In this document: positions 26,458-46,362 of the stretch, one piece after another
Position numbering within the stretch: the first letter of the stretch is position 1
How the letters are laid out: each line of letters opens with the position of its first letter
NCBI GenBank assembly: GCA_044222845.1
Contig: JBGAMO010000004.1
Location: forward strand, 509 to 64,508
DNA from: Phycisphaerales bacterium
Lineage (GTDB): Bacteria; Planctomycetota; Phycisphaerae; Phycisphaerales; UBA1924
Reading direction: 5' to 3'
DNA length: 64,000 nucleotides
Position numbers and translations under genes: made by a program
The notes under the pieces: model-generated
Told to the model about the DNA's origin: nothing
What the model saw: the letters and a program-made list of their open reading frames with translations, nothing else
The model's database searches: none

Positions 26458-27285
26458 TCAGAGAGTATCGACATCAGAGGTCTTCTCATCTCCGCGGTTT
26501 CGCCCGGGCTCCACAAAGACGGCGACTTCAAGACACTTTCCGCACTCCGCACAAGTACTTCTGCCATCGCCGGCGGGGTAGCCGCAGTTCCAGCACTTGC
26601 CCACAAGCACTCGCCACCATGCGTGCAAACACGCCAACACTCCCACGCCAGCGGCGAGAGGCAGCCAAATCCTGGTGAGGAATAACCATAGCCCAAGAAA
26701 CGAAACTCGCCACGGCAGAGAAATAGTTCGAAGAAATGGAATACCAATATCAATAACATCAGCAGGCCCAGATACACCGTCTATGCTGAATACCTTGGAG
26801 TACATAAGGCGAAACGGAAAGCCATAATAATATATCGTGCATCCACCAGCTCCGGTTCGAAGGGCTGACTGCACTTCCGAAGGAAACACCGGGTCATAGG
26901 TCCAATGCTCCGAACGAAGTACACGCTCTAGATTCTTCTGGTGGCCGATCGTTTCGACTTCCTGCGGACACACAATGCCGTAATAGTCGTACAAATACTC
27001 GGAGTGCTTCTCGTAATACACACGGTCCTCTCGAACGACATAATGATAATTTGGGCCCTTGTCACCAGCCGATGCAGATATACAACACGTAATATACCCG
27101 GTCACCAATATGCCGATAAGCCACCAAAACTGATTTTTCAAAGCAACCGAGCAGGCCACGCGCCACCCGAGTGGTGTCGGCTTCGTGCGCCTGATTCTTT
27201 GAACGATCGCCAGAAGGTCAGATTTTAGTGCTCGCGCTCGTCGCATGGTGTTCCTGCGATGACATACTGAGTGATTCTGATCCAA
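26458..27285 (-). CDS. ZR1: low-GC membrane protein with C-terminal CxxCGY..CxxCG zinc ribbon (paralog of 29246-29848 and 32187-32798)
   Basis: N-terminal TM FWWLIGILVTGYI, motif YYGFPFRLMY, second TM LWLFLTRIWLPLAAGVGVLACL, then CWNCGYPAGDGRSTCAECG. The start may be the internal ATG 27246. Confidence 0.65.
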   Translation of the reverse strand: MDQNHSVCHRRNTMRRARALKSDLLAIVQRIRRTKPTPLGWRVACSVALKNQFWWLIGILVTGYITCCISASAGDKGPNYHYVVREDRVYYEKHSEYLYDYYGIVCPQEVETIGHQKNLERVLRSEHWTYDPVFPSEVQSALRTGAGGCTIYYYGFPFRLMYSKVFSIDGVSGPADVIDIGIPFLRTISLPWRVSFLGLWLFLTRIWLPLAAGVGVLACLHAWWRVLVGKCWNCGYPAGDGRSTCAECGKCLEVAVFVEPGRNRGDEKTSDVDTL

Positions 27286-27333
27286 TCTGAGGCATGTTCA
27301 AACATCAACAATTGGAGTTCGCTCTTCACGTTT

Positions 27334-27866
27334 AATTCGCCTTTGGAATCTCTGAATAACTGCGCAGCCGCGCCGAGTGAATGAGCGGATCCGGTGTGGG
27401 TCGGACGGCCGGGCATCGGGCAGGCGTGATCGTGGCGGTGCGAAGGAACGGATCGATGGGGGGTGCGGACGCGGCGTTGGCGGGGCTGGGCGGCCTGCGC
27501 TTGGCGGCATCGCTCACGCGGCTTTACGCGCTCGGACCCTGCGGCGACCTGGCCTTTGTCATGATGGCGGTGTTCAGTGGCGGCACCTGCACGGAGGTTC
27601 TGCGGGGTGTGTTGCCGCGGCTGTTGAGTGGGGTTGCTCGATGCGCTCCACCCGCGCGTGTGGCGGTGCGACGAGGCGCGGCGGCTTGTGGGCTTGCCGG
27701 CGCTGGTGGTGGAGATGGTGTGGCCCCGGTGCTTCATCCTTATCCGCCGCGATTGAACCGCCGCGCGGAGTGGGCGGCGGGGGTGGTGCTGGGTCAGCGT
27801 AGGGCGGGGGTGGGGTTCGTGAACGGGGCACGTGCCTCCCCAGGGCTAGGGGGGCATGCCACCCGG
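27334..27866 (-). repeat. module A: about 530-bp high-GC repeat carrying decayed RHS-core-end sequence
   Basis: Aligns along its whole length with 29860-30384, roughly 85-90% by eye, with 1-nt and about 5-nt indels. The right part (from ctggtggtggagatgg) is also shared with modules C, D and E. Confidence 0.75.
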
Positions 27867-27971
27867 CGTGGGCTGAACTGCTCCGCAGAACCGCGGACCA
27901 CCAGCATCGCAACGGCGCTTCCGATGCCAGCCGACGAAGAGGCGGCACCAACTCCGCATAGCGATGTCGTG

Positions 27972-28334
27972 CTAGCGATCTGTCTCTTGAACGGGACAAT
28001 ACACACTCCATTCCAGGCCCGGAAGCCGCTGGCCGACCAGAGAAACACAACGCACTCTGCGATCAAGTTTCTGATCACGCATCACGATCGTTGTTCGGCC
28101 AGAGGCAATTTCATCGCATGGCACCGAACACAAAACACTGCCGGTCTCATCGTAAAGCACGATGGTCACCTTGGTAAAGCGCCTGCCAGAGTTGACCGCA
28201 ACGATATCACCATTGACCACAGATAGATGCAGCGGACGGGTCGCGATCCACAGCACAGCGAACGACACCACCGCAAGAAGCAAAACTGCGATCAACACGT
28301 AGACGTAAACCATGTTTTTTCTGATTATCACCAT
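27972..28334 (-). CDS. small N-terminally anchored membrane protein, candidate immunity partner of the 28406-28783 tip
   Basis: 120-aa low-GC ORF. TM VYVYVLIAVLLLAVVSFAVLWIA. It lies 71 nt downstream of the RHS-tip ORF on the same strand. Confidence 0.5.
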   Translation of the reverse strand: MVIIRKNMVYVYVLIAVLLLAVVSFAVLWIATRPLHLSVVNGDIVAVNSGRRFTKVTIVLYDETGSVLCSVPCDEIASGRTTIVMRDQKLDRRVRCVSLVGQRLPGLEWSVYCPVQETDR

Positions 28335-28405
28335 TCAATTATGCGGCGAATAATGTCCAGCGGTGGCGGCACGCAAAACACCGCCATGCATGCAACCCAC
28401 GTTCC

Positions 28406-28783
28406 CTACCCCCGCATGAAACACATGCGGCTCACATTTCTGACGCAGTCATCATATGCAAAACACGCCAGTACGCAGCGCCCAGGCCCATGCGGACATT
28501 TAGTCAGAAAGAACCCAACTACATGATATGCAATACCGGAATGCCCCATAAAATCGCATTTGCATGTAGAGCCGAGTGACAGACCACTTTCATCGCTGTG
28601 CAAACCCGGAATAGAAGAGACGCATTCAAGCAAGTTCTTGCCATCCACATACCCCGCGGGATCCCTCCTCCCCCACCGATCCATCCCGGGAGGTAGCCTC
28701 GATGCCGCACACGATCTTGTCGGGTCGCGGGCGCCACTCGTGGCGAGCACGGTCCTTGCGGACACCCAAGCGGCTTCTGTCGA
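28406..28783 (-). pseudogene. orphan RHS C-terminal end plus 55-aa Cys-rich tip (degenerate)
   Basis: AASRLPPGMDRWGRRDPAGYVDGKNLLECVSSIPGLHSDESGL aligns with the canonical RHS core end ARYYDPxxGRWxxRDPIGYxDGxNLYxYVxxxPxxxxDPxGL. YY, LYEY and DPxGL are mutated. The sequence continues SLGSTCKCDFMGHSGIAYHVVGFFLTKCPHGPGRCVLACFAYDDCVRNVSRMCFMRG*. The frame is closed by TGA codons immediately upstream (about 28784 and 28840). Confidence 0.55.
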
Positions 28784-28807
28784 TCAATGCGTCGGCGTCC
28801 GCCCGCC

Positions 28808-29027
28808 GGTTCTGCGGGCTGTGCTGCCGCGGCTTCAGGGTGCGGTTGCTCGATGCGTTCGGCCCGCGCTTGTCGGGGTGCGACAAGGCGCGGCGGCGTG
28901 TGGGGTTGCCGGCGCTGGTGGTGGAGATGGTGTGGCCCCGGTCCTTCATCCTTATCCGGCGCGATTGAGCCGCCGCGCGGAGTGGGCGGCGGGGGTGGTG
29001 TTGGGTCAGCGTAGGGCGGAGGTGGGC
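28808..29027 (-). repeat. module C: partial copy of the high-GC module
   Basis: ggttctgcgggctgtgctgccgcgg...ctggtggtggagatggtgtggccccggtccttcatccttatccggcgcgattgagccgccgcgcggagtgggcggcgggggtggtgttgggtcagcgtagggcggaggtgg matches modules A and B. Confidence 0.65.
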
Positions 29028-29130
29028 AGGGGAGTTGTTGCGACTGGTGTGAGGCGGGTGGGGGCTGGAGGTTTGGAGTCGCTGATGCCGGGGGCGGCAG
29101 CCCCACTCCCGGCACCCCTCCGCTGTTGTG

Positions 29131-29200
29131 GGGCGGGGGCGGCTTTGTACGTTCGGCGTGGAGAATGTGCGGGGCGGCGACATGAGATGGAATGGATGCG
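29131..29200 (-). mobile_element. R1 (IS5-family 5'-end) fragment
   Basis: gggcgggggcggctttgtacgttcggcgtggagaatgtgcggggcggcgacatgagatgg parallels 33101-33175. The minus-strand translation IPSHVAAPHILHAERTKPP parallels IPVPSQVVALDDFDAERAIPP. Confidence 0.35.
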
Positions 29201-29245
29201 TGGATGCGACCCGGCGGTGGTACGGGGCCTTTGGATGCTATCCGC

Positions 29246-29848
29246 CTAACACCGATTGTTGCCACATTCAGGACACGTATCACTTCGATTACCTTCCAAC
29301 GAATATCCGCAATTAACACAGGCCGTGGCCCCGGTAAATAAATAGAAAATCCTGCGACACCGCTTTAGCAAGGTAAACCTCGCGATCGCCAGAATCGCCC
29401 ACTCAATCGTCCAAATGACCACCAGGGAAGCAGAGAATCGAAGGAAATCAATATTATGAGGAAGGAACCTCAAGCCGCCATCAACGGTCCTTTGCAACAC
29501 CTCACAGGATGAACCTTCTGCAACGGTGCTGTCCGAGAACAGCACAATCTGACATGAACGCCATCGAAACGGCCACCCGCTTGAGTAGGTAAACGCAGCA
29601 TGAAGTTCTGGAACATCAATCATCGAATCAACCGTGACATTATTATACATTGTCTCCAAACGACACTCATGCCAAAGCGTCAAACGACCAAGCCCGGTTG
29701 TGACGGTCCCGGGCGCCCCGATCAGCGAAAGCAGATCTTGACTTGAGATACCAATGGTCGGCGGTAAAATCGCGAGTTTTGTCGTTAGCAACACACCAAC
29801 TAGCGCCAATGCTAGATGAGTTATCGTCCGTTTAGACATACTGCACAC
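29246..29848 (-). CDS. ZR2: low-GC membrane protein with C-terminal zinc ribbon
   Basis: TM HLALALVGVLLTTKLAIL, motif SSGWPFRWRS, second TM FSASLVVIWTIEWAILAIARF, then CVNCGYSLEGNRSDTCPECG. Confidence 0.65.
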   Translation of the reverse strand: MCSMSKRTITHLALALVGVLLTTKLAILPPTIGISSQDLLSLIGAPGTVTTGLGRLTLWHECRLETMYNNVTVDSMIDVPELHAAFTYSSGWPFRWRSCQIVLFSDSTVAEGSSCEVLQRTVDGGLRFLPHNIDFLRFSASLVVIWTIEWAILAIARFTLLKRCRRIFYLFTGATACVNCGYSLEGNRSDTCPECGNNRC

Positions 29849-29859
29849 TCGCCAAACTC

Positions 29860-30384
29860 AATTGCGGGATTGGAATCTCTGAACAATTGCGCAGCCGCGG
29901 CGGGTAATTGGGCGCATCCGGTGTGGGCCGGACGGCAGGGCCTCGGGCAGGCGCGATCGTGGCGGTGCGGAAGAACGGATCGATGGGGGGGCGCGGCGTT
30001 GGCGGGGCTGGGCGGCCTGGGCTTGGCGGCGTTGCTCGCGCGGCTTGGCGCGATCGGACCATACGGAGACCTGGCCTTTGTCATGATGGCGGTGCTGAGT
30101 GGCGGCGCCTGCACGGAGGTTCTGCGGGGTGTGGTGCCGCGGGTGTTGAGTGGGGTTGCTCGATGCGTTCGGCTCGCGCGTTTGGGGGGCGACGGGGCGC
30201 GGCGGCTTGTGGGCTTGCCTGCTCTGGTGGTGGAGATGGTGTGGCCCCGGTCCTTCATCCTTATCCGCCGCGATTGAACCGCCGCGCGGAGTGGGCGGCG
30301 GGGGTGGTGCTGGGTCAGCGTAGGGCGGAGGTGGGGTGCGTGAACGGGGCACATGCCTTTCCAAAGCTGGAGGCTTGCCACACG
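29860..30384 (-). repeat. module B: about 525-bp high-GC repeat (see module A)
   Basis: See 27334-27866. Its decayed RHS-end frame (FFRTATIAPARGPAVRPTPDAPNYPPRLRNCSEIPIPQLS..V*) stops on tATGtcTAAa, overlapping the candidate ZR2 start. Confidence 0.75.
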
Positions 30385-30459
30385 CCGCTACGAAAAATCA
30401 ACCAAACTCTTCCAAGGCCTTCTCCACTTAGGATGCTCGATCATCTTGCTCAAACAGGT

Positions 30460-30969
30460 TTACGGATCGGCTCTAGGCAAATAATAAGGATCCATCCATT
30501 TCCATGGGGATATTTTTCCATTGGTTGTTGCTGAAGTGATTACTGATATGGCTTGTGTTTCGTCAACGGCCACACCTTGTTTCAGGCTCTGAGTATCAAT
30601 ATATCCAATTTTCCATATTGGACTACTTACGACTTTATATAGACCTGTCGAGGAGGAATTCGGTGCTACTACTTTTAGATCACAAAAACGTACGAGCACG
30701 AAGCGATTGTCAATCACCGCGACTTCCTTAATATCAATCCCCACAAACAGCTGCGAGAGTTGGATCGCAGATCGCGGGGGCTGAATTTGACAACCAAAAG
30801 GGTCAATCTTGATGATTTGGAAACCATTAGGCAGCTGGCGATTCCACTCAGTCGGGCGAGCACAGCTGCAAATGCAAGCCACGATCATGATGGCGACGCC
30901 GCGAACAATCGCCATTGTGTTACATCGAGTTATTTGTGTGCGCATCCTTGTTTGCATCATTTTATCCAT
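30460..30969 (-). CDS. low-GC putative lipoprotein
   Basis: 169-aa ORF with an internal signal/lipobox-like MAIVRGVAIMIVACICSC. I recognise no family. An AT-rich tract follows at 30970-31170. Confidence 0.45.
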   Translation of the reverse strand: MDKMMQTRMRTQITRCNTMAIVRGVAIMIVACICSCARPTEWNRQLPNGFQIIKIDPFGCQIQPPRSAIQLSQLFVGIDIKEVAVIDNRFVLVRFCDLKVVAPNSSSTGLYKVVSSPIWKIGYIDTQSLKQGVAVDETQAISVITSATTNGKISPWKWMDPYYLPRADP

Positions 30970-31113
30970 GTTTACTGCAGTCGAGTCATTGTAAAGTATA
31001 GTTTATCATAATGACTATTTGCGATGCAACCCGCTCCGATGTCATTTTATTTGTTTTGATTTTGAGTGTTCCGAGTTCACTTGAACAAGTCCCACGAGGC
31101 TTTGAGTTGGGCG

Positions 31114-31455
31114 CTATTCACTTGCTGAATAAACTGTGCAAATCTGGTTCATAAACTGGCAAGAATAAACCGCCGTTTCGTCCGCCGAGTCGCAGACGCC
31201 GTCTGTGTTCATGTCCCCCGCGGCGTACACCGTCGGCTCCCCGTACGGGCTGTACCGCACGTACTCGATCGGCAGCCCCGTGCTGCCCACTACCGCCGCC
31301 ACATCCGCCCGCCAGTTCGGAAGGAAGTACTGCCGCACCTCCAGCGCGCCGTCGCTCAAAGAGTCCCGCCCGCCCGTGTGGTCGTACGACGAACCCGGGT
31401 GGCCCGTGGGCCCGCCGAGACTGGTGCTGGAGATGGAACTGCCCCGGTCCTTCAT
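31114..31455 (-). pseudogene. RHS-core-end-like fragment D, truncated by a low-GC junction
   Basis: MKDRGSSISSTSLGGPTGHPGSSYDHTGGRDSLSDGALEVRQYFLPNWRADVAAVVGSTGLPIEYVRYSPYGEPTVYAAGDMNTDGVCDSADETA. Codon GC3 then collapses (VYSCQFMNQICTVYSASE*). The pattern Y..(H)..(D)..GS...l.d..G..ve.Y.Y.PYGE is that of the RHS-associated core. Confidence 0.55.
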
Positions 31456-31582
31456 CCTTGTCCGCCGCGATTGAGCCGCCGCGGGGTGGGCGGCGGGGAG
31501 TGGTGCTGGGTCAGCGTAGGGCGCGGGTGGGGTGCGTGAACGGGGCACATGCCTCCCCAAAGCTGGAGGCATGCCACCCGGC
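31171..31582 (-). repeat. module D (tandem with module E)
   Basis: About 90% identical by eye to 31723-32133. It ends with a perfect hairpin, catgcctcc-ccaaagct-ggaggcatg. Confidence 0.75.
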
Positions 31583-31584
31583 GA

Positions 31585-32007
31585 CTATCGCGGGAAACAG
31601 ATTAATACGGATTCACACTCAAACTCGCGCGAAGAAGAAGTAGGGCGTGTAGAAGGGGAAGGCCGACGGGGACCGTCGGGCCACCCACGGACGCCCGTGG
31701 TCGAGTTCTGCAGATCATCCCACGCCGTTTCGTCCGCCGAGTCGCAGACGCCGTCTGCGTTCATGTCCCCCGCGGCGTACACCGTCGGCTCCCCGTACGG
31801 GCTGTACCGCACGCACTCGATCGGCACCCCCTTGCTGTCGATCACCGCCACCACGTCCGCACGCCAGTTCTGCAGGAAGTACTGCCGCGTCTCCAGATCG
31901 CCGTCGCCCAAAGAGTTCCACCCGCCCGTGTGGTCGTACGACGAACCCGGGTGGCCCGTGGGCTCGCCGACACTGGTGCTGGAGATGGAACTGCCCCGGT
32001 CCTTCAT
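31585..32007 (-). pseudogene. RHS-core-end-like fragment E with EF-hand/dockerin-like continuation
   Basis: ...YDHTGGWNSLGDGDLETRQYFLQNWRADVVAVIDSKGVPIECVRYSPYGEPTVYAAGDMNADGVCDSADETAWDDLQNSTTG..., then a low-complexity tail running through the 31661-31686 palindrome. Confidence 0.55.
31661..31686. repeat. 25-nt palindromic element (copy 2)
   Basis: ggccgacggggaccgtcgggccaccc. See 17609-17634. Confidence 0.7.
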
Positions 32008-32180
32008 CCTTGTCCGCTGCGATTGAGCCGCCGCGGAGTGGGCGGCGGGGGGTGGTGCTGGGTCAGCGTAGGTCGGGGGTGGGGTGCGTGAACGGGGCAC
32101 ATGCCTCCCCAAAGCTGGAGGCATGCCACCCGGCGCAGTGCTCCCATGTCTCCCCGGGGCCGGAGGCATGCCACCCGCCG
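31723..32180 (-). repeat. module E plus an extra duplicated half-hairpin
   Basis: See module D. A second hairpin copy, atgtctcc-ccggggcc-ggaggcat, lies at about 32146-32176, directly after the ZR3 stop. Confidence 0.7.
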
Positions 32181-32186
32181 CAAAGC

Positions 32187-32798
32187 TCAACGATGATCTC
32201 GGCGGGTGGTTTGTCCGCATTCGGGGCAGACTCCGGTTTGGCTGCGCATCGGATAGCAGCACACTTCACAGAGATGACGGCGCCGTCGCAAGGCGATTCT
32301 GCCGAATCGAAAGCCGGTGATGGACACGAAGTACACGCCGACCCACACGACGACACACAGAAGCAATCGCGGCCACTCGATGTCTACGGGGAAGATCCGC
32401 ACCCTTGCGAAGTCCGACGGGTGGGTGACGACGCCACTCTTGGGAAGGCCGCTGCTGATGAACGCGCCGTCGCGGCTTCCCACGAGATGATATTTCAGGC
32501 ATCGAATTGGGAAACCAAATGTCCTCGTTATCTTAATGATCTCAGGTGGCGCCTTTACGCCATACCCGTGGTTCACATCCCAGTTTCGGTAGATGTCCTC
32601 GCTGCGGGTTCCGCTGGACGCGAACGAACCCACTTCCGTTTGTGTCGTCCACCTGCCGATGGTTGTTGCGGCACCCACGGGCTGGTCGCCATGCAGGTCA
32701 GCCCGAATGATAACTCCCACGATCAGTGCGACGGTGAGTGCGGACATCGGGACCAGATACGCGATGGTGACGAGCGTTCGTGTGATCGATGGTCGCAT
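32187..32798 (-). CDS. ZR3: low-GC membrane protein with C-terminal zinc ribbon
   Basis: Internal ATG 32798 gives MRPSITRTLVTIAYLVPMSALTVALIVGVII. Motif TFGFPIRCLK, second TM LLLCVVVWVGVYFVSITGF, then CEVCCYPMRSQTGVCPECG. Confidence 0.65.
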   Translation of the reverse strand: MRPSITRTLVTIAYLVPMSALTVALIVGVIIRADLHGDQPVGAATTIGRWTTQTEVGSFASSGTRSEDIYRNWDVNHGYGVKAPPEIIKITRTFGFPIRCLKYHLVGSRDGAFISSGLPKSGVVTHPSDFARVRIFPVDIEWPRLLLCVVVWVGVYFVSITGFRFGRIALRRRRHLCEVCCYPMRSQTGVCPECGQTTRRDHR

Positions 32799-33043: not shown

Positions 33044-33262
33044 TGCGGTGTTGCTGCGTGCCATCCCGGACTTCGCTGCGCAGAGCCTGCGCTCAGTCCG
33101 GGCGTCGGGGGTTTGGTGCTTCGGGTGGTATTGCACGTTCGGCATCGAAGTCGTCCAGGGCGACGACTTGCGATGGCACGGGGATGGTGGTTGCGTGTTT
33201 CTCCCACACTTCCAACCACTTGTGCCGCGCTGTGCCTTCACTCGGGTTGGATTCGGTCGGCG
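33044..33262 (-). mobile_element. R1: longest solo IS5-family 5'-end fragment
   Basis: 33044-33110 match 2306-2385, the part contiguous with the transposase remnant. 33095-33200 match nt 1-108. One minus-strand frame reads ..HKWLEVWEKHATTIPVPSQVVALDDFDAERAIPPEAPNPRRPD*, compatible with a decayed L.D..WE.I.PLLP....GRP transposase N-terminus. Confidence 0.45.
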
Positions 33263-33263
33263 C

Positions 33264-34796
33264 CTACGCGTTCATGTCGCTCCAGCGTCTGGCCATGCGG
33301 CCGAAGACCCAGAGGCCGATGGTGGAGACCACGCCAACGAGGGCGAAGGGGATCCAGACGTAGTAGTGTGGGGAGTAGGTGTCCCAGAGCAACTGGATCG
33401 CGGCATCGGGGCCGAGGTTTGTGGTCTCCATGAGCTTGGCGAAGGCCTGGGGGCGGTCGACGCCCAAGAGGGCGTCGAGTTTGGCGGGGTCGTGGTTCCA
33501 GACCTTGCCTTCGCCGAGTTTGGTGTGCTGGAGCAGGTACTTCTGGGCGAGGACAGCGCGTTCGCCGAAGTGGCCGTAGAGGTAACCGGCGATCTTGGAG
33601 CCGATGAAAACGCCCACGCCCACGGGGATGTTGACGTACCCCAGGTACAGGCCCTTCTTGCCCGGGGGGGCGATGAGGGCGAGGTACTCGCTCTTCTTGG
33701 GACCGGTGGTCATTTCGCCCAGCGAGAAGCAGAGGATGCCCAGGAGCAGGAACCAGACGCTCATGGTCCAGCCGGCGATGAGGATGCCCATGGTGGCCAG
33801 GACCATGCCGAAGAGCATGGCGCTGAGGGTGCGCATCTTGCGGGTGAGCCAGGACATGCCGACGACGCCGACGATGATGCAGAAGGAGTTGAGGGAGAGC
33901 AGTACCTGCTGGGGGATCTGCAGGCCGCGGGGCGTTTCTTCGGTGACTTTGGTGAAGACTGCGTCGGGGAGCCAGCGGATGGAATCGACCAGGGGCGTGC
34001 TGTTGACCCAGTCGCGGATGAAGTTGGGGTGCAGGTCCCAGAGTTGGTACATCATCAGCCAGAAGCCGGACATGATGGCGAGCCAGGCGAGGAGGCGCGG
34101 CTCGGCGATGCTCACGACGGTGCGCTTGAGCACTCCGATCACCGACTCGCGCTTGTCGGCTCCGCTGGGGACATCCTTGAACGTGAAGAGCATCACGAGG
34201 TTGAGGGCGGTGAAGGCGGCGGAGGCGATGAAGAGGTTGCGCCAACTGGCAGCGGAGTGATCGCGCGTGAGGAGCAGGCCGGGGAGGTAGTGGCCGACGA
34301 ACGCGCCGACATTCACGACCCAGTAGAAGATGCCCCAGCCGACGGAGGAGTTGGACTTGTCGAGGTTCTGGGCGAGGGAGCCCTGGATGCTGGGCTTGAA
34401 GAAGGCGGTGCCCGTGGCCAGGACCATGATGGCGGTGAAGAGGGCCCAGAAGTTGCTGACGCCGGGGATGTCGCGCATGAAGGCGATCATGAGGTAGCCG
34501 ATCATCATGAGGACGATCGAGAAACCCAGCACCTTCTTGTAGCCGTAGCGGTCGGCGAAGCCGCCGGTGACGATGGGCAGGAGGCTCTGGAAGACGGCCC
34601 ACCAGGCGTAGATGGTGCCCTTGTTGGCGGCGGTCAGGTGCAGGCCGCCGGGGTCGTCGGCCTGCATGATGTAGATGGGGGCCATGACGCGCAGGTTGTA
34701 ATACGCGAGGCGCTCCCACATCTCGATGGTGTTGAGCATCCAGAAGGAGCTCGCGAAACGGGTCTTGGCCGGCGACGGGGTGGCGGGGTCGGGCAT
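33264..34796 (-). CDS. POT/PTR2-family peptide:proton symporter (MFS)
   Basis: Internal ATG 34796. FWMLNTIEMWERLAYYNLRVMAPIY and GGFADRYGYKKVL (POT signatures), with about 14 TM segments. Confidence 0.9.
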   Translation of the reverse strand: MPDPATPSPAKTRFASSFWMLNTIEMWERLAYYNLRVMAPIYIMQADDPGGLHLTAANKGTIYAWWAVFQSLLPIVTGGFADRYGYKKVLGFSIVLMMIGYLMIAFMRDIPGVSNFWALFTAIMVLATGTAFFKPSIQGSLAQNLDKSNSSVGWGIFYWVVNVGAFVGHYLPGLLLTRDHSAASWRNLFIASAAFTALNLVMLFTFKDVPSGADKRESVIGVLKRTVVSIAEPRLLAWLAIMSGFWLMMYQLWDLHPNFIRDWVNSTPLVDSIRWLPDAVFTKVTEETPRGLQIPQQVLLSLNSFCIIVGVVGMSWLTRKMRTLSAMLFGMVLATMGILIAGWTMSVWFLLLGILCFSLGEMTTGPKKSEYLALIAPPGKKGLYLGYVNIPVGVGVFIGSKIAGYLYGHFGERAVLAQKYLLQHTKLGEGKVWNHDPAKLDALLGVDRPQAFAKLMETTNLGPDAAIQLLWDTYSPHYYVWIPFALVGVVSTIGLWVFGRMARRWSDMNA

Positions 34797-34834
34797 TGGG
34801 CCCAGTGTAGCGGAATGGGGGCGGCGGGCCGGGC

Positions 34835-35776
34835 TCAGGGGGCCCAGCGGACCTGCGCGGTGACGGCCCAATGGTCGCTGGGGAACCTGCCCTCAAAGGT
34901 GCGACGGTCGATCGCGGCATCGAGGATTTGGGTGCCGCGGCGGACGAAGATGTAGTCGATCTTGTCGGGGCCGACGGACTTGCCGAAGCCCTGGAAGGTG
35001 CCGACGTTCTTTTCATCGGGGAACGTGGAACGGAAGGTGTCGACGAGTTTGGGCGATTCGACCGGGGTGGGGGCGGGGGGGGGGGTTGGGTCGTCGGCGG
35101 CGCGGGCGGCCTCGCCCTTGAGGTAGCGGATGGCGTTGCTGGATTCGCCGCAGTTGAAGTCGCCGGTCAGGATGACGGGGGCTGCACCGGCGTGCTCGGC
35201 GATGTGGCGGGCGATGGCTTGTGCGGACCGGCGGCGGGCGGGCTCGCTGCGGTGGTCGAGGTGGGTGTTGTAGACCCAGACGGAGCCGCCCTGGGCGATG
35301 GTGAACTTGGCGAAGGTGAAGATGCGGGGGATGTCGTTTCCCCAGGACTTGGAGCCGGGGGTGTCGGGCGTGTCGGAGAGCCAGCGGGTGCCGCGGGTGG
35401 CGGGATCGGGGTCGAGGGTGAGGCGGCCGGTGTGATAGAGGATGGGGGAAAACTCGCCGGCGTCCTTGCCGTCGTCGCGGCCGACGCCGAAGACGGCGAG
35501 TCGGCCCTTGGAGGATTCGACGATCTCATCAATCTGGAACCTCAGGGCTTCCTGGAGGCCGACGATGTCGTAGGGGTGCTCGTTCACGAGGCGGAAGACC
35601 AGGTCCTTGCGCTTGGGCCAGGCGTGGTCGCCATCGTCGGCGGTGCCGTAGCGGATGTTGAAGGTCATGATGCGCAGGTCTGTCGGCGGCGCGGCGGGGG
35701 GTGCTGGGTTTGTCGGGGGTTGGGTGCAGGCGGCGAGGAGAAGCACCAGCGGCAGAAGGTGGAGCGCGGCGAGCAT
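34835..35776 (-). CDS. endonuclease/exonuclease/phosphatase (EEP) family lipoprotein
   Basis: Lipobox LLLAAC. RIMTFNIRYG, IVGLQEA, NTHLDH, GDFN and SDHWAV are the EEP catalytic motifs. Confidence 0.85.
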   Translation of the reverse strand: MLAALHLLPLVLLLAACTQPPTNPAPPAAPPTDLRIMTFNIRYGTADDGDHAWPKRKDLVFRLVNEHPYDIVGLQEALRFQIDEIVESSKGRLAVFGVGRDDGKDAGEFSPILYHTGRLTLDPDPATRGTRWLSDTPDTPGSKSWGNDIPRIFTFAKFTIAQGGSVWVYNTHLDHRSEPARRRSAQAIARHIAEHAGAAPVILTGDFNCGESSNAIRYLKGEAARAADDPTPPPAPTPVESPKLVDTFRSTFPDEKNVGTFQGFGKSVGPDKIDYIFVRRGTQILDAAIDRRTFEGRFPSDHWAVTAQVRWAP

Positions 35777-38223: not shown

Positions 38224-39852
38224 ATGGAACTGACTTTCGATCAACTGCAACAGTTGCTTCACTTGCCAGAAAGCGAACATCTGGAGTTCAAGGAAGCCAA
38301 GCGTGATTTCAGCTTCGACCGGCTGCTTTGTTACGGCGCGGCCTTGGCGAACGAGGGGGGAGGCACGCTCGTTCTTGGTGTTGGAGATCGCCGACCCCGC
38401 AAAGTGCTTGGATCAGCGGCGTTCCAGGATCTCGTCAAGACGCGGGCCAACCTCACTCGGGAGCTGCAGTTGCGGGTCGAGGCGTGCGAGATGGATCACG
38501 CAGATGGCCGGGTGGTCATTTTCAAGTTTCCGCCAAGACCGATCGGGCGGCCGATCAGGATCAAGGGGGTGTACTGGACACGTCGGGGCGAAGAGCTGAC
38601 GGCCATGACCGAGGATGCGTTACACGAAGCATTGATGGAGGCGTGCACCGATTTCTCGGCATTGCCGTGTCGTGGCGCAACGGACCAAGACCTTTCGCCG
38701 TCGGCGATCGCGGCATTTCGGGCCGCGTGGCACCGAAAGACGGACAATTCGACGATCGCGACCGCGCCGGTTCGGCAACTTCTTCGTGACGCGGAACTTC
38801 TGGCGGATGGCGTGCCCAACTTTGCGGCGTTGGTCGTCATGGGCAAAGGCGAGTCGCTGGGCAGGCTGCTGCCACAGGTCGAGTTCGTGTACGAGTATCG
38901 GTCGAATGAAAGTTCGATTTCGTACCAGCAACGGCAGGAGTTCCGCGATGGATTTCTGAACTTTGCGGACACGATCTGGAACCTGATCAACCTTCGGAAC
39001 GACATACAGCAGGTACGGGACGGGTTGTACATGAGTGACATCCGCACCTTCAATGAAGTGGTGGTGCGAGAGTGCCTTCTGAACGCCATGTGCCACCGTG
39101 ATTACCAGTCACCCGGGTCGGTGTTCGTACGTCAGTATCCCCAACGGCTGGACATCGTGAGCCCGGGAGGGTTGCCCAAGGGGATTACACCGGAGAACAT
39201 CGTGTTCCGGCAGTCTCCCAGAAATCGGCGTATCGCCGAAACACTGGCGCGATGCGGATTGGTCGAGCGCTCGGGGCAAGGCGCCGACCGAGTTTTTTCG
39301 GAGACGATCCGCGAGGGCAAGGCGGTCCCGGACTTCGCGAACACCGACGCCCAACAGGTTTCAATTTCGCTGCGCGGAGAAGTGACCGATCCGGTCTTCG
39401 TTCATTTCCTTCGTCGTTTGCAGGAAATGCGCGGCGAGGCGCTCTCGGCCAATGACTACATGGCGCTCGATTTGCTCCGTCGGAATCAACAGTTACCCCC
39501 GGAGCTACAGCAAAGCCTGCCTAGGCTCTCGCGATGCGGCGCGATAGAAGCGATTGGCCGCGGCAAGGGCACACGGTACATTTTGGCCAAGGACCTTTAC
39601 CGGGCGCTGGGCAATCCCGGTGCGTACACGCGTGAACGCGGACTGGATCATGAAACGCAGAAACAACTCCTGCTCAAACACATCCGCGACAATGCGGAGT
39701 ATGGCAGTCCACTGCGGGAGTTGCAGCAAGTGCTTCCGCACGTTGGCCGACGTTCGGTTCAACGTCTGGTGGCCGAGCTTCGGGACGAAGGGTTCATTAC
39801 GGTGCGCGGTAAGACCAATACGGCCATGTGGCTACCAAAGGAAGATCGCTGA
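38224..39852 (+). CDS. AlbA_2/Schlafen-type DNA-binding domain protein with ATPase-like and wHTH C-terminal parts
   Basis: LPESEHLEFKEAKRDFSFDRLLCYGAALANEGGGTLVLGV (AlbA_2 signature), NAMCHRDYQSPGSVFVRQYPQRLDIVSPGGLP (HATPase_c_4-like), and a C-terminal wHTH-like SVQRLVAELRDEGFI. GC is lower than in murB and ddl. Confidence 0.75.
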   Translation: MELTFDQLQQLLHLPESEHLEFKEAKRDFSFDRLLCYGAALANEGGGTLVLGVGDRRPRKVLGSAAFQDLVKTRANLTRELQLRVEACEMDHADGRVVIFKFPPRPIGRPIRIKGVYWTRRGEELTAMTEDALHEALMEACTDFSALPCRGATDQDLSPSAIAAFRAAWHRKTDNSTIATAPVRQLLRDAELLADGVPNFAALVVMGKGESLGRLLPQVEFVYEYRSNESSISYQQRQEFRDGFLNFADTIWNLINLRNDIQQVRDGLYMSDIRTFNEVVVRECLLNAMCHRDYQSPGSVFVRQYPQRLDIVSPGGLPKGITPENIVFRQSPRNRRIAETLARCGLVERSGQGADRVFSETIREGKAVPDFANTDAQQVSISLRGEVTDPVFVHFLRRLQEMRGEALSANDYMALDLLRRNQQLPPELQQSLPRLSRCGAIEAIGRGKGTRYILAKDLYRALGNPGAYTRERGLDHETQKQLLLKHIRDNAEYGSPLRELQQVLPHVGRRSVQRLVAELRDEGFITVRGKTNTAMWLPKEDR

Positions 39853-41037: not shown

Positions 41038-43452
41038 ATGCGCCATCAGCGGATCATCGCGGCGGCGTTCTTGCTGCTTCCGAGTGCGGCGAGCGGGCGG
41101 CAGTGCGCGAGTTGGGAGCGGGTGTTCGAAACGCCGTACCCGAATATTGTGAACGCGGGTTTCGGGTTCGATCCGACGCGCGGGGTGCTGCTGCTGTACG
41201 GCGGGGGGACCGGCACGCTGCCGATGAATGAAACCTGGGAATGGGATGGGGCCCGGTGGGCGGTGCGCGATTCCGGGGCGCCGTCACCGCCGCCGCTCAG
41301 AACACCGTCGATGCGGTTTCACCCGATGCGCGGTCGGATGTGGCTCGATGGCGGCATCGCGCCCACGACCCTGCCGGCGAACCAGCCCCGCAACGGGCTG
41401 TGGGAGTTTGATCCCGCCGCGGGCTGGGCACCGGTGGCAGCGCCGTCGGCGGTGCAGGATGGGTCCCGGTGCACGCAGCACGTGCTGATGTACTCGCACG
41501 CCATCGGCCAGATGCTGTACTACCCGTCGGACCAGTGCACGAACTCGACGCAGGTGTTCATGCTGCTGCCCAACGGCACGGTGGCCCCCATCCCGCGGTC
41601 GGCGAACAGCCCCGAGGTGGTCCCGCTGAGCAACGCGTATTGGATCGAATCGTCGGACATGGGGCCGCAGACGACGGTGGCCTGGGGCCGGGGCCGGTTT
41701 GACGAGACATTTCTGGGCACCTTTTACGCCAATCCGAGCGCCAGCATGGGAGTGGGGATCAAATGGCGGTACGCGCCGATCCCGTACCCGGGCCGCCCGG
41801 CTCCGGACCGCATGGCCTCGCCCCCTGTGTTCGACGAGGCCCGCCGCACGATCGTCGTGCTCGTGTGGAACTCCACGAGCACCGAAGCGCAGTTGTACGA
41901 ACTCGCCCTGGGCACATTCACGTGGACGCGAATCCCCGCCGCGGAGCCGTGGCCCCTGCGGACGCGACGCATGGAGATCGGGTACTACGACCCGGGACGG
42001 CGCGCGGTGACGTTCATTCAATCCGACGCCGATCCGGAGGCGGGGCCGCACGCCTGGAGTTGGGACGGCGCGGCCTGGACGGCGGCGGGCACGAGCCCGA
42101 ACACCCCTGCGCGCCGGCTTTGGAGCTCCGTGGTGGCGGACACGCTCAACGGACGGTTGATCATGTTCGGCGGGCGCGGCAACACGACGGATGCCCCCAC
42201 CAACACCTGGGCGTGGAACGGGGCGGCGTGGACGGTGGTGGGGAACGGCGGCCCGTCGCCGCGCTATCTGCACGGCATGGTGTACGACGCGGCGCGCGAT
42301 GAGGTGCTGCTGTACGGCGGACGGAACACCACGGGCCCGCTCTCCGTTGGGGAGACGTGGGTGTTCCGCGAGGGGGTGTGGACTCGACGACCGAACGGGG
42401 CTCCGGGCATGATTTCACGACGCGGGCACGCAATGGTGTACGACGCGGCACGGGGCAAGACCGTGGTCTTCGGCGGGCGAGATTCCAACAACGCGCCGAT
42501 GAACGACACCTGGGAATGGAACGGCGCGGCCTGGACGCGGGTCGCTGCGGGGGGCCCCGAAGCCCGGGCGTATGCATCCATAACGTACGACACGCGGCGC
42601 GGCGTGGCGGTATTGTTCGGCGGCACCACGGCCACCGGCTCGCTCGGCGACACATGGGAATACAGCGCCGGATCCTGGCGACGGGTGGCGACGTCGGGCC
42701 CGGCCCCTCGCGTCTACTCGGCGATGGCGTACGACCCGAGCCGGGGCGTCTGTGTCCTTGCTGGCGGCTGCCGTTCCATCGATTCGAATCCTGCGCCGGT
42801 GCCGATGAGCGATACGTGGCAATGGGACGGCGTGTCGTGGCGACGCCTCGCCGACAGCGGCTTCGGGATCAGATTCGGCGCGGCCCTTGTGTATGACCCG
42901 GTATCGGGTCGTCCGTTGATGTACGGCGGAGACCACGCGGCGGAGTACGGCAGTTCCGACGGCTTGGGCATGCCGTACGGCGATCTGGTGGCCCTGAACC
43001 GCGCGGGACCGCCGCCGCGGATCAGCACGCCGCTGACGGATGCTCGGGTTTCGCCGGGCGGAGCGATTGCGTTCACGGCGACAGCGGAGCACGCCGCGAG
43101 TGCCACCGTGACCTGGCTCCATAACGGCGTGGTCATCGCGGACGATGGGCGGGTGCAAGGGCAGGGGACGCCCACGCTTGTGGTGTCGAGCATCGGGCTT
43201 GAGGACGAAGGGGCCTATCGCGTGGTCGTTACCAGCGACTGCGGTTCGGACTTTGCTGATGCGTCGATCCTGATCGACCGGCCGTGCGCCGCGGACTTCA
43301 ACCTGGACGGCGGCGTGGACGGGCGGGATATCGAGCGGTTCGTGGCGATGTGGGAACGTGCCGACCCGGTGGCGGACGTGGACGGCAACGGCGGGTGCGA
43401 CGGGGAGGACGTGGCCGAGTTCTTCCGGCGATGGGAGGCCGGAGGGTGCTGA
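41038..43452 (+). CDS. Kelch/galactose-oxidase-like beta-propeller surface protein with Ig-like domain and GC-type dockerin-like C-terminus
   Basis: Signal peptide MRHQRIIAAAFLLLPSAASG. More than ten repeats of the type (N/S)DTWEW(N/D)G.AW. An Ig-like segment TVTWLHNGVVIADDGRVQGQGTPTLVVSSIGLEDEGAYRVVV. The C-terminus reads DFNLDGGVDGRDIERFVAMWE...DVDGNGGCDGEDVAEFFRRWEAGGC*. Confidence 0.8.
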   Translation: MRHQRIIAAAFLLLPSAASGRQCASWERVFETPYPNIVNAGFGFDPTRGVLLLYGGGTGTLPMNETWEWDGARWAVRDSGAPSPPPLRTPSMRFHPMRGRMWLDGGIAPTTLPANQPRNGLWEFDPAAGWAPVAAPSAVQDGSRCTQHVLMYSHAIGQMLYYPSDQCTNSTQVFMLLPNGTVAPIPRSANSPEVVPLSNAYWIESSDMGPQTTVAWGRGRFDETFLGTFYANPSASMGVGIKWRYAPIPYPGRPAPDRMASPPVFDEARRTIVVLVWNSTSTEAQLYELALGTFTWTRIPAAEPWPLRTRRMEIGYYDPGRRAVTFIQSDADPEAGPHAWSWDGAAWTAAGTSPNTPARRLWSSVVADTLNGRLIMFGGRGNTTDAPTNTWAWNGAAWTVVGNGGPSPRYLHGMVYDAARDEVLLYGGRNTTGPLSVGETWVFREGVWTRRPNGAPGMISRRGHAMVYDAARGKTVVFGGRDSNNAPMNDTWEWNGAAWTRVAAGGPEARAYASITYDTRRGVAVLFGGTTATGSLGDTWEYSAGSWRRVATSGPAPRVYSAMAYDPSRGVCVLAGGCRSIDSNPAPVPMSDTWQWDGVSWRRLADSGFGIRFGAALVYDPVSGRPLMYGGDHAAEYGSSDGLGMPYGDLVALNRAGPPPRISTPLTDARVSPGGAIAFTATAEHAASATVTWLHNGVVIADDGRVQGQGTPTLVVSSIGLEDEGAYRVVVTSDCGSDFADASILIDRPCAADFNLDGGVDGRDIERFVAMWERADPVADVDGNGGCDGEDVAEFFRRWEAGGC

Positions 43453-44582: not shown

Positions 44583-45473
44583 ATGGACGAAAAGAGGCTG
44601 CCCGCGAACTTGCGTGTGATCAACGCCGGGTTGATCCGGATTGATCCGCGGCTGGACGCGAAGGGGAATCTGGAGGAGGATCAGACGTGCATCCAGTGCG
44701 GGTACATGCTCCGTGGGGTGCCGTTCCTGGGCCCGTGCCCGGAGTGCGGCACGCCGGTGAAGCGGTCGTTCATGGGGGACTTGCTTGAGTACAGCGATCC
44801 GCAGTATGTGGTGGGCCTGCACCGGGGGGTGGTGCTGATCATCGCGGCGGCGGGGGTCATGCTGGTGCAGATGGTTGGGCTGATAGTCGCGGGTCTGTTG
44901 ACGGGGACGAGCGGGACCCCCTCCGGCAACACGGGGGGGAGCATGACGGACGGAATCTCCACCGCGATGTCGATCGTCGGCGTGGTGCTGCACCTGGTCG
45001 GGTACGTGTTCTACAGCCGCCCGGATCCGGGCCAGATGACGGCGAACAAGGGAGAGAAGCCGCGGCGTCGGCTGCGGCAATCGTTGGCGATGCAGGTTGC
45101 TCTGTACATCGGGTCGGAGGTGATGCGGTATACGCCGAGTATCGCGGCGATCCCATGGATGCACGGCGCGGTGGATATCGCATCGCTCACGGCAATGGTG
45201 ATCAACTTCCATGCGTCGATGGTGTACACGCAGTGGATCGCGCGGCGGCTTCCGAACGAGGCGCTGGCATCGCGGGCGAAGCAGTTCCTGTGGCTGGGGC
45301 CGTGCCTGACGCTGTCTCTCGCGTGCATCCTGCTGGTGGGGCCGATCGTGGCGGTGGCGATGTACATCGCGATCTTCAACACGCTGAGGAAGGACCTCAA
45401 GTCGCTGCGGGAGGATCAGGGGACGCTGGGGGCGCAGATCTACGACGACACAAGCAGGCCGTTCGCGGGGTGA
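44583..45473 (+). CDS. ZRN1: N-terminal CxxCGY..CPECG zinc ribbon plus polytopic membrane domain
   Basis: CIQCGYMLRGVPFLGPCPECGTP, then YSDPQYVVGLHRG, several TM segments, and the C-terminal IAIFNTLRKDLKSL...SRPFAG*. Confidence 0.7.
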   Translation: MDEKRLPANLRVINAGLIRIDPRLDAKGNLEEDQTCIQCGYMLRGVPFLGPCPECGTPVKRSFMGDLLEYSDPQYVVGLHRGVVLIIAAAGVMLVQMVGLIVAGLLTGTSGTPSGNTGGSMTDGISTAMSIVGVVLHLVGYVFYSRPDPGQMTANKGEKPRRRLRQSLAMQVALYIGSEVMRYTPSIAAIPWMHGAVDIASLTAMVINFHASMVYTQWIARRLPNEALASRAKQFLWLGPCLTLSLACILLVGPIVAVAMYIAIFNTLRKDLKSLREDQGTLGAQIYDDTSRPFAG

Positions 45474-45495: not shown

Positions 45496-46362
45496 ATGTC
45501 AGAAGTCGGGAAGACCGGCGATGACGCGGGGCGCGGCGGGCCACGGCTTGACGCGGGCGGGGCCATCGTGGACGAAAAAGCGTGCCGCGGGTGCGGGTAT
45601 TGCCTCAAGGGCGTGGCCTTTTCCGGGGTGTGCCCGGAGTGCGGGCTGGCGATCGAGGAATCCAAGCGGAGCATGTTTCTCAGGGACGCGGACGCTTCGT
45701 ACGTGGCGGGCCTGCGGCGCGGGGTGGTGCTGATCATGGCGGCGGGGTGCATCATGCTGGCGTACGTGGTGCAGACGGTGCCGCTGCAGATGTTGCTCGT
45801 CGCGCTGGGCGTGAGCCCGATGCCGCTGATCGTGATTCACGGGGTGTTCACCGGCGCGCTGATGATCGGGCTGCTGCTGCACGTCGCGGGGTATGTGCTG
45901 TACAGCCGCGCGGAACCGGGGAGGCTGATGGAGAACGGCGGGGAGACGGCGCGGCGGATGCTGCGATGGTCGCTGGCGGTGCAGGCGCTGCTGGTGGCCG
46001 CCTCGATGGGCCTGGAGTCGTTGCCGGCGATGGGGCCGGTGGAGTGGTTGGACTACGCGGTGAGGATCGCGTCGTACGCGGCGATGATGATCTGCTTCTA
46101 CGCGTCGATGGTGTACACGCGGTGGGTCGCGGGGCGGGTTCCGGACATCAAGCTTGATGAAAGAGCGCAGCGGTTCATGTGGCTGGGGCCGTGCCTGACG
46201 GTGCTGCTGGCGTGCGTGCTGCTGGCGGGGCCGATCGTGGCGCTGTGCATGTACATCACGATCTTCAACACGCTGAGGAAAGACCTTGGGTTGATAGCGC
46301 AGGAGCAGAGGAAGCGGTTGGACGCGATCTACACTGACACACGCGTGCCGTTCGCGGGGTAG
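45496..46362 (+). CDS. ZRN2: paralog of ZRN1
   Basis: CRGCGYCLKGVAFSGVCPECGLA, DADASYVAGLRRG, and ASMVYTRWVAGRVP...RFMWLGPCLTVLLACVLLAGPIVALCMYITIFNTLRKDL...RVPFAG*. It aligns colinearly with ZRN1. Confidence 0.7.
   Translation: MSEVGKTGDDAGRGGPRLDAGGAIVDEKACRGCGYCLKGVAFSGVCPECGLAIEESKRSMFLRDADASYVAGLRRGVVLIMAAGCIMLAYVVQTVPLQMLLVALGVSPMPLIVIHGVFTGALMIGLLLHVAGYVLYSRAEPGRLMENGGETARRMLRWSLAVQALLVAASMGLESLPAMGPVEWLDYAVRIASYAAMMICFYASMVYTRWVAGRVPDIKLDERAQRFMWLGPCLTVLLACVLLAGPIVALCMYITIFNTLRKDLGLIAQEQRKRLDAIYTDTRVPFAG

Follow-up and report, generated by a model that had tools for sequence, protein, structure and literature searches.

Divergent two-pass membrane proteins with a zinc ribbon in a degenerate RHS cassette array of a Phycisphaerales bacterium: members of a very large undescribed family and possible orphan immunity proteins

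The ZR genes and their products

A window of 64,000 nucleotides (nt) from contig JBGAMO010000004.1 of a Phycisphaerales bacterium (assembly GCA_044222845.1) was analysed to describe three genes, here called ZR1, ZR2 and ZR3, that encode small membrane proteins ending in a zinc ribbon. The genes lie in a degenerate RHS orphan cassette array, in which five GC-rich 3' fragments of an RHS polymorphic-toxin gene alternate with five AT-rich genes. Their products belong to a very large family, so far undescribed and mainly found in Phycisphaerae, within which they are divergent and of foreign composition. All three open reading frames (ORFs) are intact and on the minus strand. Their features, including the first and second transmembrane segments (TM1 and TM2), are as follows.

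26458-27246, minus strand: ZR1, 262 amino acids from the ATG at 27246, which is the likelier start (alternative TTG at 27285); TM1 at about 27064-27129, GFPFR at 26809-26823, TM2 at about 26605-26700, ribbon at 26539-26595
29246-29848, minus strand: ZR2, 200 amino acids, GTG start; GWPFR at 29564-29578, ribbon at 29261-29320
32187-32798, minus strand: ZR3, 203 amino acids, starting at an internal ATG of a 275-amino-acid ORF that extends to 33014; GFPIR at 32502-32516, TM2 at 32280-32375, ribbon at 32214-32270

The homology and the common architecture of the three proteins are established. Each runs from TM1 through a periplasmic beta region with the motif G-[FW]-P-[FI]-R to TM2 and a Cys4 zinc ribbon. 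Two TM-like segments were found in each protein by a hydropathy scan (3/3), and the long helices modelled with AlphaFold2 coincide with them (residues 6-35 and 142-173 in ZR3, 25-59 and 183-214 in ZR1). Modelling was done from an 84-sequence alignment and gave a predicted local distance difference test score (pLDDT) of 76.6 and a predicted template modelling score of 0.60 for ZR3, and a pLDDT of 70.9 for ZR1. In both models the motif sits at the turn of a beta-hairpin and is followed by two to three further strands, the long TM2 helix and the ribbon; model confidence was low in the outer half of the periplasmic region. The motif occurs in the versions YYGFPFR, SSGWPFR and TFGFPIR, about 40-50 residues upstream of the second hydrophobic segment, and the C-terminal CxxC-x-Y...CxECG ribbons are CWNCGYPAGDGRSTCAECG, CVNCGYSLEGNRSDTCPECG and CEVCCYPMRSQTGVCPECG, where the C-G-Y position is C in ZR3 and G in ZR1 and ZR2.

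A preliminary description of the window had reported the three ORFs, the two TM segments, the motifs and the ribbons, and the ORF check, the hydropathy scan and the AlphaFold2 helices agree with it. Its observation of low GC content was also confirmed (0.546 in the three ZR genes vs 0.66 in the remaining window). The Arg-rich linker that it placed between TM2 and the ribbon is clear only in ZR3 (LRRRRH); it is weaker and partial in ZR2 (KRCRR) and nearly absent from ZR1 (WRVLVGK), the family consensus for comparison being RRxLRxRRG. By the positive-inside rule, we infer an inner-membrane protein with both termini probably in the cytoplasm, and the Cys4 ribbon would be expected to bind zinc.

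Pairwise BLASTP similarity was weak: ZR1 and ZR2 aligned with E = 4e-5 over 115 amino acids, and ZR3 aligned with both in the ribbon only. A profile was built from 81 family members from elsewhere, with the window sequences excluded, and it matched ZR3 at E = 7e-28 (positions 5-225), ZR1 at 6e-13 (22-233) and ZR2 at 5e-12 (105-223), the alignments covering the G-W-P motif through the ribbon. Because this leave-out profile scores all three proteins significantly, their likeness is far beyond chance. All three carry the features of membership (G-x-P, four ribbon Cys and two TM helices), and the six invariant positions, G, P and the four Cys, are kept in each; the Pro before TM2 is nearly invariant in the family.

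The wider protein family

The three proteins had at first been regarded as a family of their own. An exhaustive HMMER search of 1.84 billion cluster representatives (50% identity), using a four-sequence profile of the conserved half as query, instead returned 18,012 proteins at E <= 1e-3, of which 214 reached E <= 1e-10. Among the best 150 matches listed, most are 190-290 amino acids long with profile coverage from motif to ribbon, and some are tandem doubles of 400-550 amino acids. A typical member has a basic N-terminus, a TM1 ending in '..AVAW..' and a variable stretch of 60-120 residues before G-W-P-x-R, followed by about 30-40 residues of beta structure, LPxRPxWPG, a TM2 with N-T, the RRxLRxRRG linker and C-x-x-C-G-Y-D-L-R-G-x(4-6)-C-P-E-C-G. 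A conserved Pro, part of LPxRP in typical members, stands before TM2. The domain in the periplasm is rich in beta structure and variable apart from one fixed feature, the G-[FWY]-P turn of a beta hairpin.

A word-indexed search with a three-sequence profile returned the window's own proteins and three weak matches, among them the metagenomic protein P0003, a true relative that is linked to ZR3 with E = 5e-8 over 123 amino acids; the word-indexed homologue search with ZR2 alone gave no match. No close relatives of ZR1, ZR2 or ZR3 were found among about 15 billion proteins. Pfam and NCBIfam hold no model for the ZR proteins and gave only generic zinc ribbons below threshold, the best score against PF13240 and PF12773 being 18.1 bits vs a gathering cutoff of 25, with the Cys4 pattern itself present. 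When 25 family members were scanned individually against the same two libraries, only weak ribbons were returned. PADLOC gave no match for the ZR proteins or for family members, fold comparison of the ZR3 model with the PDB found no relative (best E = 1.3), and a PDB sequence search with the profile found generic ribbons only. Full-text literature searches yielded nothing relevant on this architecture, and the immunity-family catalogue of PMC3482391 contains no such protein. The earlier statement that the architecture lacks a functional description thus stands for Pfam, NCBIfam, PADLOC, the PDB and the searched literature. The architecture, size and existence of the candidate immunity family are unrecorded in these libraries and texts; RHS orphan arrays are already known.

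For the distribution of the family, one genome per GTDB species was scanned. This gave 286 relatives, and 79 loci were kept, almost all from Phycisphaerae (Phycisphaerales, Tepidisphaeraceae) and a few from Planctomycetaceae and Isosphaeraceae. Many genomes contain several family loci, and same-strand tandem arrays of 3 to about 9 copies are frequent within loci. Tandem paralogs share 45-69% identity in TM2 and ribbon and 26-52% in TM1, against 9-20% in the outer part of the periplasmic region; within the arrays the scaffold is constant and the exposed part highly variable. In the far flanks of family loci there is about one ribbon motif per 26.5 kb, and reversed sequence contained none (0 matches). 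Within the window, three tandem paralogs on the plus strand (44583-45473, 45496-46362 and 46392-47357) encode multi-pass membrane proteins in which a CxxCGY...CPECG ribbon is N-terminal; they are connected by DNA repeats spaced by about 890 nt and matched no Pfam or PADLOC family.

The RHS remnant array

The ZR genes are embedded in a 6.8-kb stretch in which GC-rich repeats alternate with AT-rich unique segments. Its flanks are a putative murC-like gene (plus strand, ending at 26153) and a putative POT-type transporter gene (minus strand, 33264-34871), as read from their translations and from a near-identical homologue in the metagenome-assembled genome Planctomycetota SZAS-3. The remaining features of the array are listed below.

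27343-27867, minus strand: RHS fragment F5 (A-type, module A), comprising a hairpin, the remnant of a YD repeat (MKHRGHTISTTSAG...) and an A-specific segment of 240 nt; frameshifted relative to copy F3
27972-28334, minus strand: ORF120, small protein with a membrane anchor at its N-terminus; occupies the immunity position immediately 3' of the F4 toxin tip
28406-29079, minus strand: RHS fragment F4 (B-type), a frameshifted RHS core end (...GMDRWGRRDPAGYVDGKNLLECVSSIPGLHSDESGL) followed by a 57-amino-acid tip with 7 Cys
29870-30388, minus strand: RHS fragment F3 (A-type), 88-89% identical to F5
30460-30969, minus strand: ORF169, lipoprotein-like small protein
31171-31584, minus strand: RHS fragment F2, an internal RHS piece (RQYFLPNWRADVAAVVGSTGLPIEYVRYSPYGEP plus dockerin-like GDMNTDG...) that stops before the core end
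31723-32136, minus strand: RHS fragment F1, 92% identical to F2 and truncated in the same way
33044-33111, no strand assigned: REP-like intergenic repeat of 68 nt bordering the array on its upstream side; also present at 2311-2378

The repeats are of RHS origin. Their minus-strand translations are pieces of RHS proteins that share '...RIRMKDRGHTISTTSAG.PTGHPGSSYDHTGG...' (YD-type repeats), and further RHS-type strings are present ('WRADV...YSPYGEP' and '...RWGRRDPAGYVDG...DESGL'), together with the core string 'MKDRGHTISTTSAG'. F1 and F2 translate to 'RQYFLQNWRADVVAVIDSKGVPIECVRYSPYGEP' plus the dockerin-like 'GDMNADGVCDSADE'. The same order (WRADV...YSSYG, dockerin-like repeats, GYAGYEW...RRDPLGYVDG...DPKG) is found in the RHS protein of a related Phycisphaerae locus (L090), in which F1 and F2 correspond to the stretch upstream of the core end. 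In SZAS-3, fragment copies are 74-92% DNA-identical to those of the window, and an ORF that runs through an intact core end (locus L002, 641-1675) passes the TIGR03696 model Rhs_assc_core with 37.4 bits vs a cutoff of 32.5, as do RHS ORFs of other Phycisphaerae. The window fragments alone do not reach this model; F4 holds the last 37 core residues, with 74% DNA identity to the SZAS-3 ORFs that pass its cutoff.

A classical Rhs element has a GC-rich core and AT-rich tips and downstream ORFs. In the array a small ORF on the same strand lies directly 3' of four fragments (F2 before ORF169, F3 before ZR2, F4 before ORF120 and F5 before ZR1). Because the repeats are remnants of RHS toxin genes, the place of the ZR genes is the place of immunity genes, which is in line with what the preliminary description had suggested from their position. 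It had put each ZR gene directly 3' of a repeat; this holds for ZR1 and ZR2, both directly behind A-type repeats, and ZR3 lies instead 3' of the 68-nt REP-like repeat and 5' of F1.

All five fragments are defective: F1 and F2 are truncated and F3, F4 and F5 are frameshifted. The frameshift in F4 falls between 'GVRK' and 'RWGRRDP', and F3 and F5 differ by indels of 1 and 5 nt, which are not multiples of three, before both run into the 240-nt segment without a protein-like frame. In RHS tip/immunity arrays a variable C-terminal toxin domain stands behind a DPxGL-type cleavage motif. The only surviving toxin tip here is that of F4 (28406-28576, minus strand), whose 57 amino acids with 7 Cys follow DESGL; F1, F2, F3 and F5 have no tip, and Pfam gave no toxin domain. 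Each of the five genes between the fragments (ZR3, ORF169, ZR2, ORF120 and ZR1) is intact and codes for a small envelope protein, the ZR ORFs staying open over 200-262 codons in DNA of about 50% GC. Three ribbon proteins lie within 6.3 kb of array, vs about 0.24 ribbon motifs expected.

At the head of four RHS fragments stands a short GC-rich hairpin, GGCATGCCTCC-AGCTTTG-GGGAGGCATG, which is degenerate in the fifth, F4. It is situated just 3' of the preceding cassette gene (32100-32188 in two copies, 31548-31591, 30352-30395 and 27830-27867), and it could be a terminator or a recombination boundary. The A-specific 240-nt segment (27343-27580 and 29870-30100; in SZAS-3, L002 3437-3590) is 72-89% conserved and lies directly upstream of three ribbon-protein genes in two organisms. 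A structured RNA or leader in this segment was rejected, as the RNAalifold covariation term was unfavourable (+2.12) and Rfam gave nothing in 26.0-33.5 kb. No coding frame was found in it either: by tblastx all frames were equally conserved, with no similarity to real RHS proteins. An integron cassette array was likewise discarded, the repeats being RHS coding remnants of 410-530 nt that are not attC-like, with no inverted repeats of >=30 nt. Several copies of the REP-like repeat, 68 nt to about 200 nt in length, edge the arrays of SZAS-3 (L002 3961-4766; L003 1018-1587).

Two further observations were made elsewhere in the window. Repeat units of 73 nt at 7686-7839, 10336-10408 and 43291-43444 encode dockerin-like repeats of the form 'ADFNQDGGIDGSDV..FF..W'; they form the C-termini of three large secreted proteins, and similar repeats occur inside the RHS proteins of this lineage. 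A low-GC island on the plus strand (38224-39852) carries a 542-amino-acid ORF with a composition unlike that of the surrounding genome, which may be another horizontally acquired gene.

RHS ends in related genomes

A 21-mer of the shared RHS core was found in one relevant species representative, SZAS-3. Its lone other match, in a Deinococcus genome, is taken to be chance, and JGI metagenome contigs contained no match to the RHS 21-mer. The array locus is hypervariable, and the syntenic murC-side locus of SZAS-3 holds different cassettes. The ORF169 cassette (30385-30986; L005 6293-6894 in SZAS-3) lies behind a truncated RHS end there too, and because it is 95% identical between the two genomes, vs 84% for the murC end, recent lateral exchange of cassettes between arrays is suggested.

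SZAS-3 also has an A-type fragment; behind it come a TM...TM-ribbon protein (ORF167, L002 2807-3310) and, next, a full family member at L002 1751-2446 ('YGYPLRF...CGICKYPLSSRDGPCSECG'). A ribbon-tailed membrane protein thus follows the A-type fragment in 3/3 copies (ZR1, ZR2 and ORF167).

Relatives of the RHS end were then sought, which gave 14 Phycisphaerae loci comprising about 20 ends. In four of them (L090, L096, L097 and L098) an ORF with TM segment, basic linker and CxxC-x-Y...CPECG begins on the same strand <=150 nt past the RHS stop; in L096 it overlaps this stop, the RHS part spanning 2-1135 and the ORF 1128-1766. Ribbon-tailed membrane proteins thus do lie directly 3' of RHS toxin tips elsewhere. 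Farther downstream, a ribbon-tailed ORF was found at about 1 kb in L094 and a full family member at about 2 kb in L091. The four adjacencies compare with about 0.4 expected from the ribbon background (Poisson P ~1e-3), with several loci coming from one genome and the adjacent proteins being mutually different. The Cys-rich RHS tips of these loci gave no match to Pfam domains; such tips would suit toxins whose folding and action take place outside the cytoplasm, and the corresponding immunity proteins would then be expected to face the periplasm.

Function of the ZR proteins

Two layers were distinguished. The family is large, real and mostly not linked to toxins, and the ZR genes are an atypical subset of it, each in or next to an immunity position. 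For this subset we infer, tentatively, that ZR1, ZR2 and ZR3 are orphan immunity-type envelope proteins with decayed toxin partners. The periplasmic domain would then bind or block Cys-rich, envelope-acting RHS C-terminal toxins from neighbouring cells, TM2 and the ribbon would serve as a constant membrane and cytoplasmic scaffold, and the toxin halves would have decayed while the protective halves were retained.

A number of observations weigh against orphan immunity. No full-length rhs gene is present within the 64-kb window, no intact cognate toxin lies upstream of ZR1, ZR2 or ZR3, and a toxin domain could not be recognised in any frame of the A-type fragments before ZR1 and ZR2. The full family member of SZAS-3 is on the 5' side of the sole intact-looking RHS tip, and the ORF that stands 3' of that tip is a different one. 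Three of the four RHS-adjacent proteins in related genomes share only the TM segment and ribbon with the ZR family, without the G-W-P domain, and the fourth, in L096, has the whole two-TM layout, with no clear G-W-P motif. It is also not obvious what a cytoplasmic zinc ribbon would contribute to the neutralisation of a toxin in the periplasm. The survey of the family points in the same direction: an RHS core end was found within <=10 kb of flank in 0/79 loci, and the 124 nearest non-family neighbours fell into 150 Pfam families with <=3 matches each, mostly housekeeping enzymes, in a survey that is approximate as the gene caller, based on GC at third codon positions, mis-calls low-GC genes. 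Family genes are also native in GC content (median difference -0.006 over 65 loci). A toxin link is not supported for the family at large, which as a whole showed no association with toxins or mobile elements, the outcome that the preliminary description had named as a refutation. An immunity function applies at most to the low-GC, cassette-borne subset that includes ZR1, ZR2 and ZR3.

The main alternative, possible if doubtful, is that the ZR proteins perform a general, lineage-specific envelope function of the family that is unrelated to toxins, and that the window copies are strays in a recombination hot spot of RHS debris. They could, for instance, be sensors or scaffolds in which the periplasmic domain varies and the ribbon provides a docking site for a partner in the cytoplasm. 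The native composition, the multiple copies and tandem arrays, the housekeeping neighbours and the lack of RHS ends near the 79 loci all favour it, as does the abundance of the ribbon module, which also occurs at the N-terminus of other membrane proteins (44.5-47.4 kb). On three metagenome contigs the surroundings were mixed, one having a Fic gene, one an integrase/methylase island and one a DUF58-BatA operon; at L103 2700-3329 a family member stands between DUF58 and BatA/VWA genes in a Bat/MoxR-type operon, a context unrelated to toxins and again in keeping with a general function. Against this, the window copies are 11 GC points below their surroundings and the most AT-shifted of 66 loci (65 others), all three share one RHS array in which a fraction of one ribbon motif would be expected, ribbon proteins follow the A-type fragments without exception, adjacency to RHS tips is enriched in other genomes, and no conserved partner gene stands beside family members.

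The opposite extension, in which the whole family of about 18,000 clusters, often in tandem, serves Phycisphaerae across the lineage as a repertoire of immunity proteins or decoys against polymorphic toxins that act on the envelope, perhaps including all TM segments with CxxCGY...CPECG tails, appears unlikely. Homogeneous tandem arrays with a hypervariable periplasmic part would fit such a repertoire, and the zinc ribbon would then be a shared cytoplasmic signalling or anchoring module. There is only a slim chance that the ZR genes are functionless, decaying leftovers, that is, pseudogene-like cassette ORFs that happen to be open. All RHS fragments of the array have decayed, the linkers of ZR1 and ZR2 depart from the family consensus and the three proteins lack close relatives, all of which speak for leftovers; on the other hand, the chance that ORFs of this length stay open at such a GC content is about 1e-4 or less each, the six invariant positions are kept in 3/3 and both TM segments are intact.

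Substrates of sortases and exosortases carry sorting signals made of a motif, a TM segment and a basic tail. By analogy, LPxRP, the TM helix and the basic cluster with the ribbon might form a lineage-specific sorting or processing signal, the proteins being cleaved or anchored envelope cargo with the periplasmic domain as the working part, which we consider highly unlikely. The Pro motif, hydrophobic helix and Arg cluster are the most conserved part of the family, and the same TM segment and ribbon tail is found on unrelated membrane proteins. To our knowledge, however, known sorting signals end at the basic cluster and none has a zinc ribbon. Ribbons also occur at N-termini, no candidate sorting enzyme recurs beside the genes, and ZR1 and ZR2 are poor in both the LPxRP motif and the Arg cluster.

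Implications

A family with tens of thousands of members is absent from Pfam, NCBIfam and the literature, and modelling it would annotate many 'hypothetical proteins' of Planctomycetota; the ribbon-tail module may mark a few percent of the genes in Phycisphaerae. Should the cassette-borne members prove to be immunity proteins, a zinc ribbon in the cytoplasm on a two-pass membrane protein would be a new architecture for such proteins, and they would point to envelope-acting, Cys-rich RHS toxins in a phylum in which interbacterial warfare is almost unstudied. If they are not, the family alone is of interest, and the locus is an unremarkable collection of decayed RHS fragments. Were the lineage-wide repertoire real, it would be among the largest immunity superfamilies known, with an architecture undescribed for immunity proteins.

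Comparison with known systems

The ZR proteins resemble ZAS-type anti-sigma factors in their cytoplasmic Cys-rich zinc site, TM helix and extracytoplasmic domain. The zinc site of ZAS proteins is N-terminal (HxxxCxxC), and their genes lie beside the gene of an extracytoplasmic function (ECF) sigma factor. The ZR ribbon is C-terminal, in contrast, and there are two TM helices; this assignment was rejected on the position of the ribbon and on the recurrent neighbours of family members, among which there is no sigma-factor family. With generic zinc ribbons (Zn_Ribbon_1 PF13240, DZR PF12773; NrdD, bL32, Nop10, rubrerythrin) the ZR proteins share two CxxC knuckles 9-12 residues apart. Unlike these, CxxCGY-x(8-10)-CPECG is joined to a TM helix via an Arg-rich linker and is lineage-specific.

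The array is comparable to orphan Rhs tip/immunity arrays (Zhang et al. 2012, PMC3482391; reviewed in PMC4436062), including the orphan rhs of Salmonella (PMC7043789) and the orphan immunity genes of Serratia (PMC10539506). As in those arrays, the RHS core is present in repeated 3' fragments that provide homology handles, each with a small ORF immediately 3' of it; GC-rich core pieces are interleaved with variable, AT-rich cassettes, and cassette content varies between related strains. In contrast to them, the window has no upstream full-length rhs gene and all its toxin parts are truncated or frameshifted; the candidate immunity family is missing from the lists of known immunity families, and most of its members are not beside toxins. 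Compared with poly-immunity loci (PMC3482391) and acquired interbacterial defence clusters, which are heterogeneous mixtures and often mobile, the tandem arrays of the family are homogeneous and GC-native; like them, they consist of small, fast-diverging genes without a cognate toxin, in which the exposed part is variable and the scaffold conserved.

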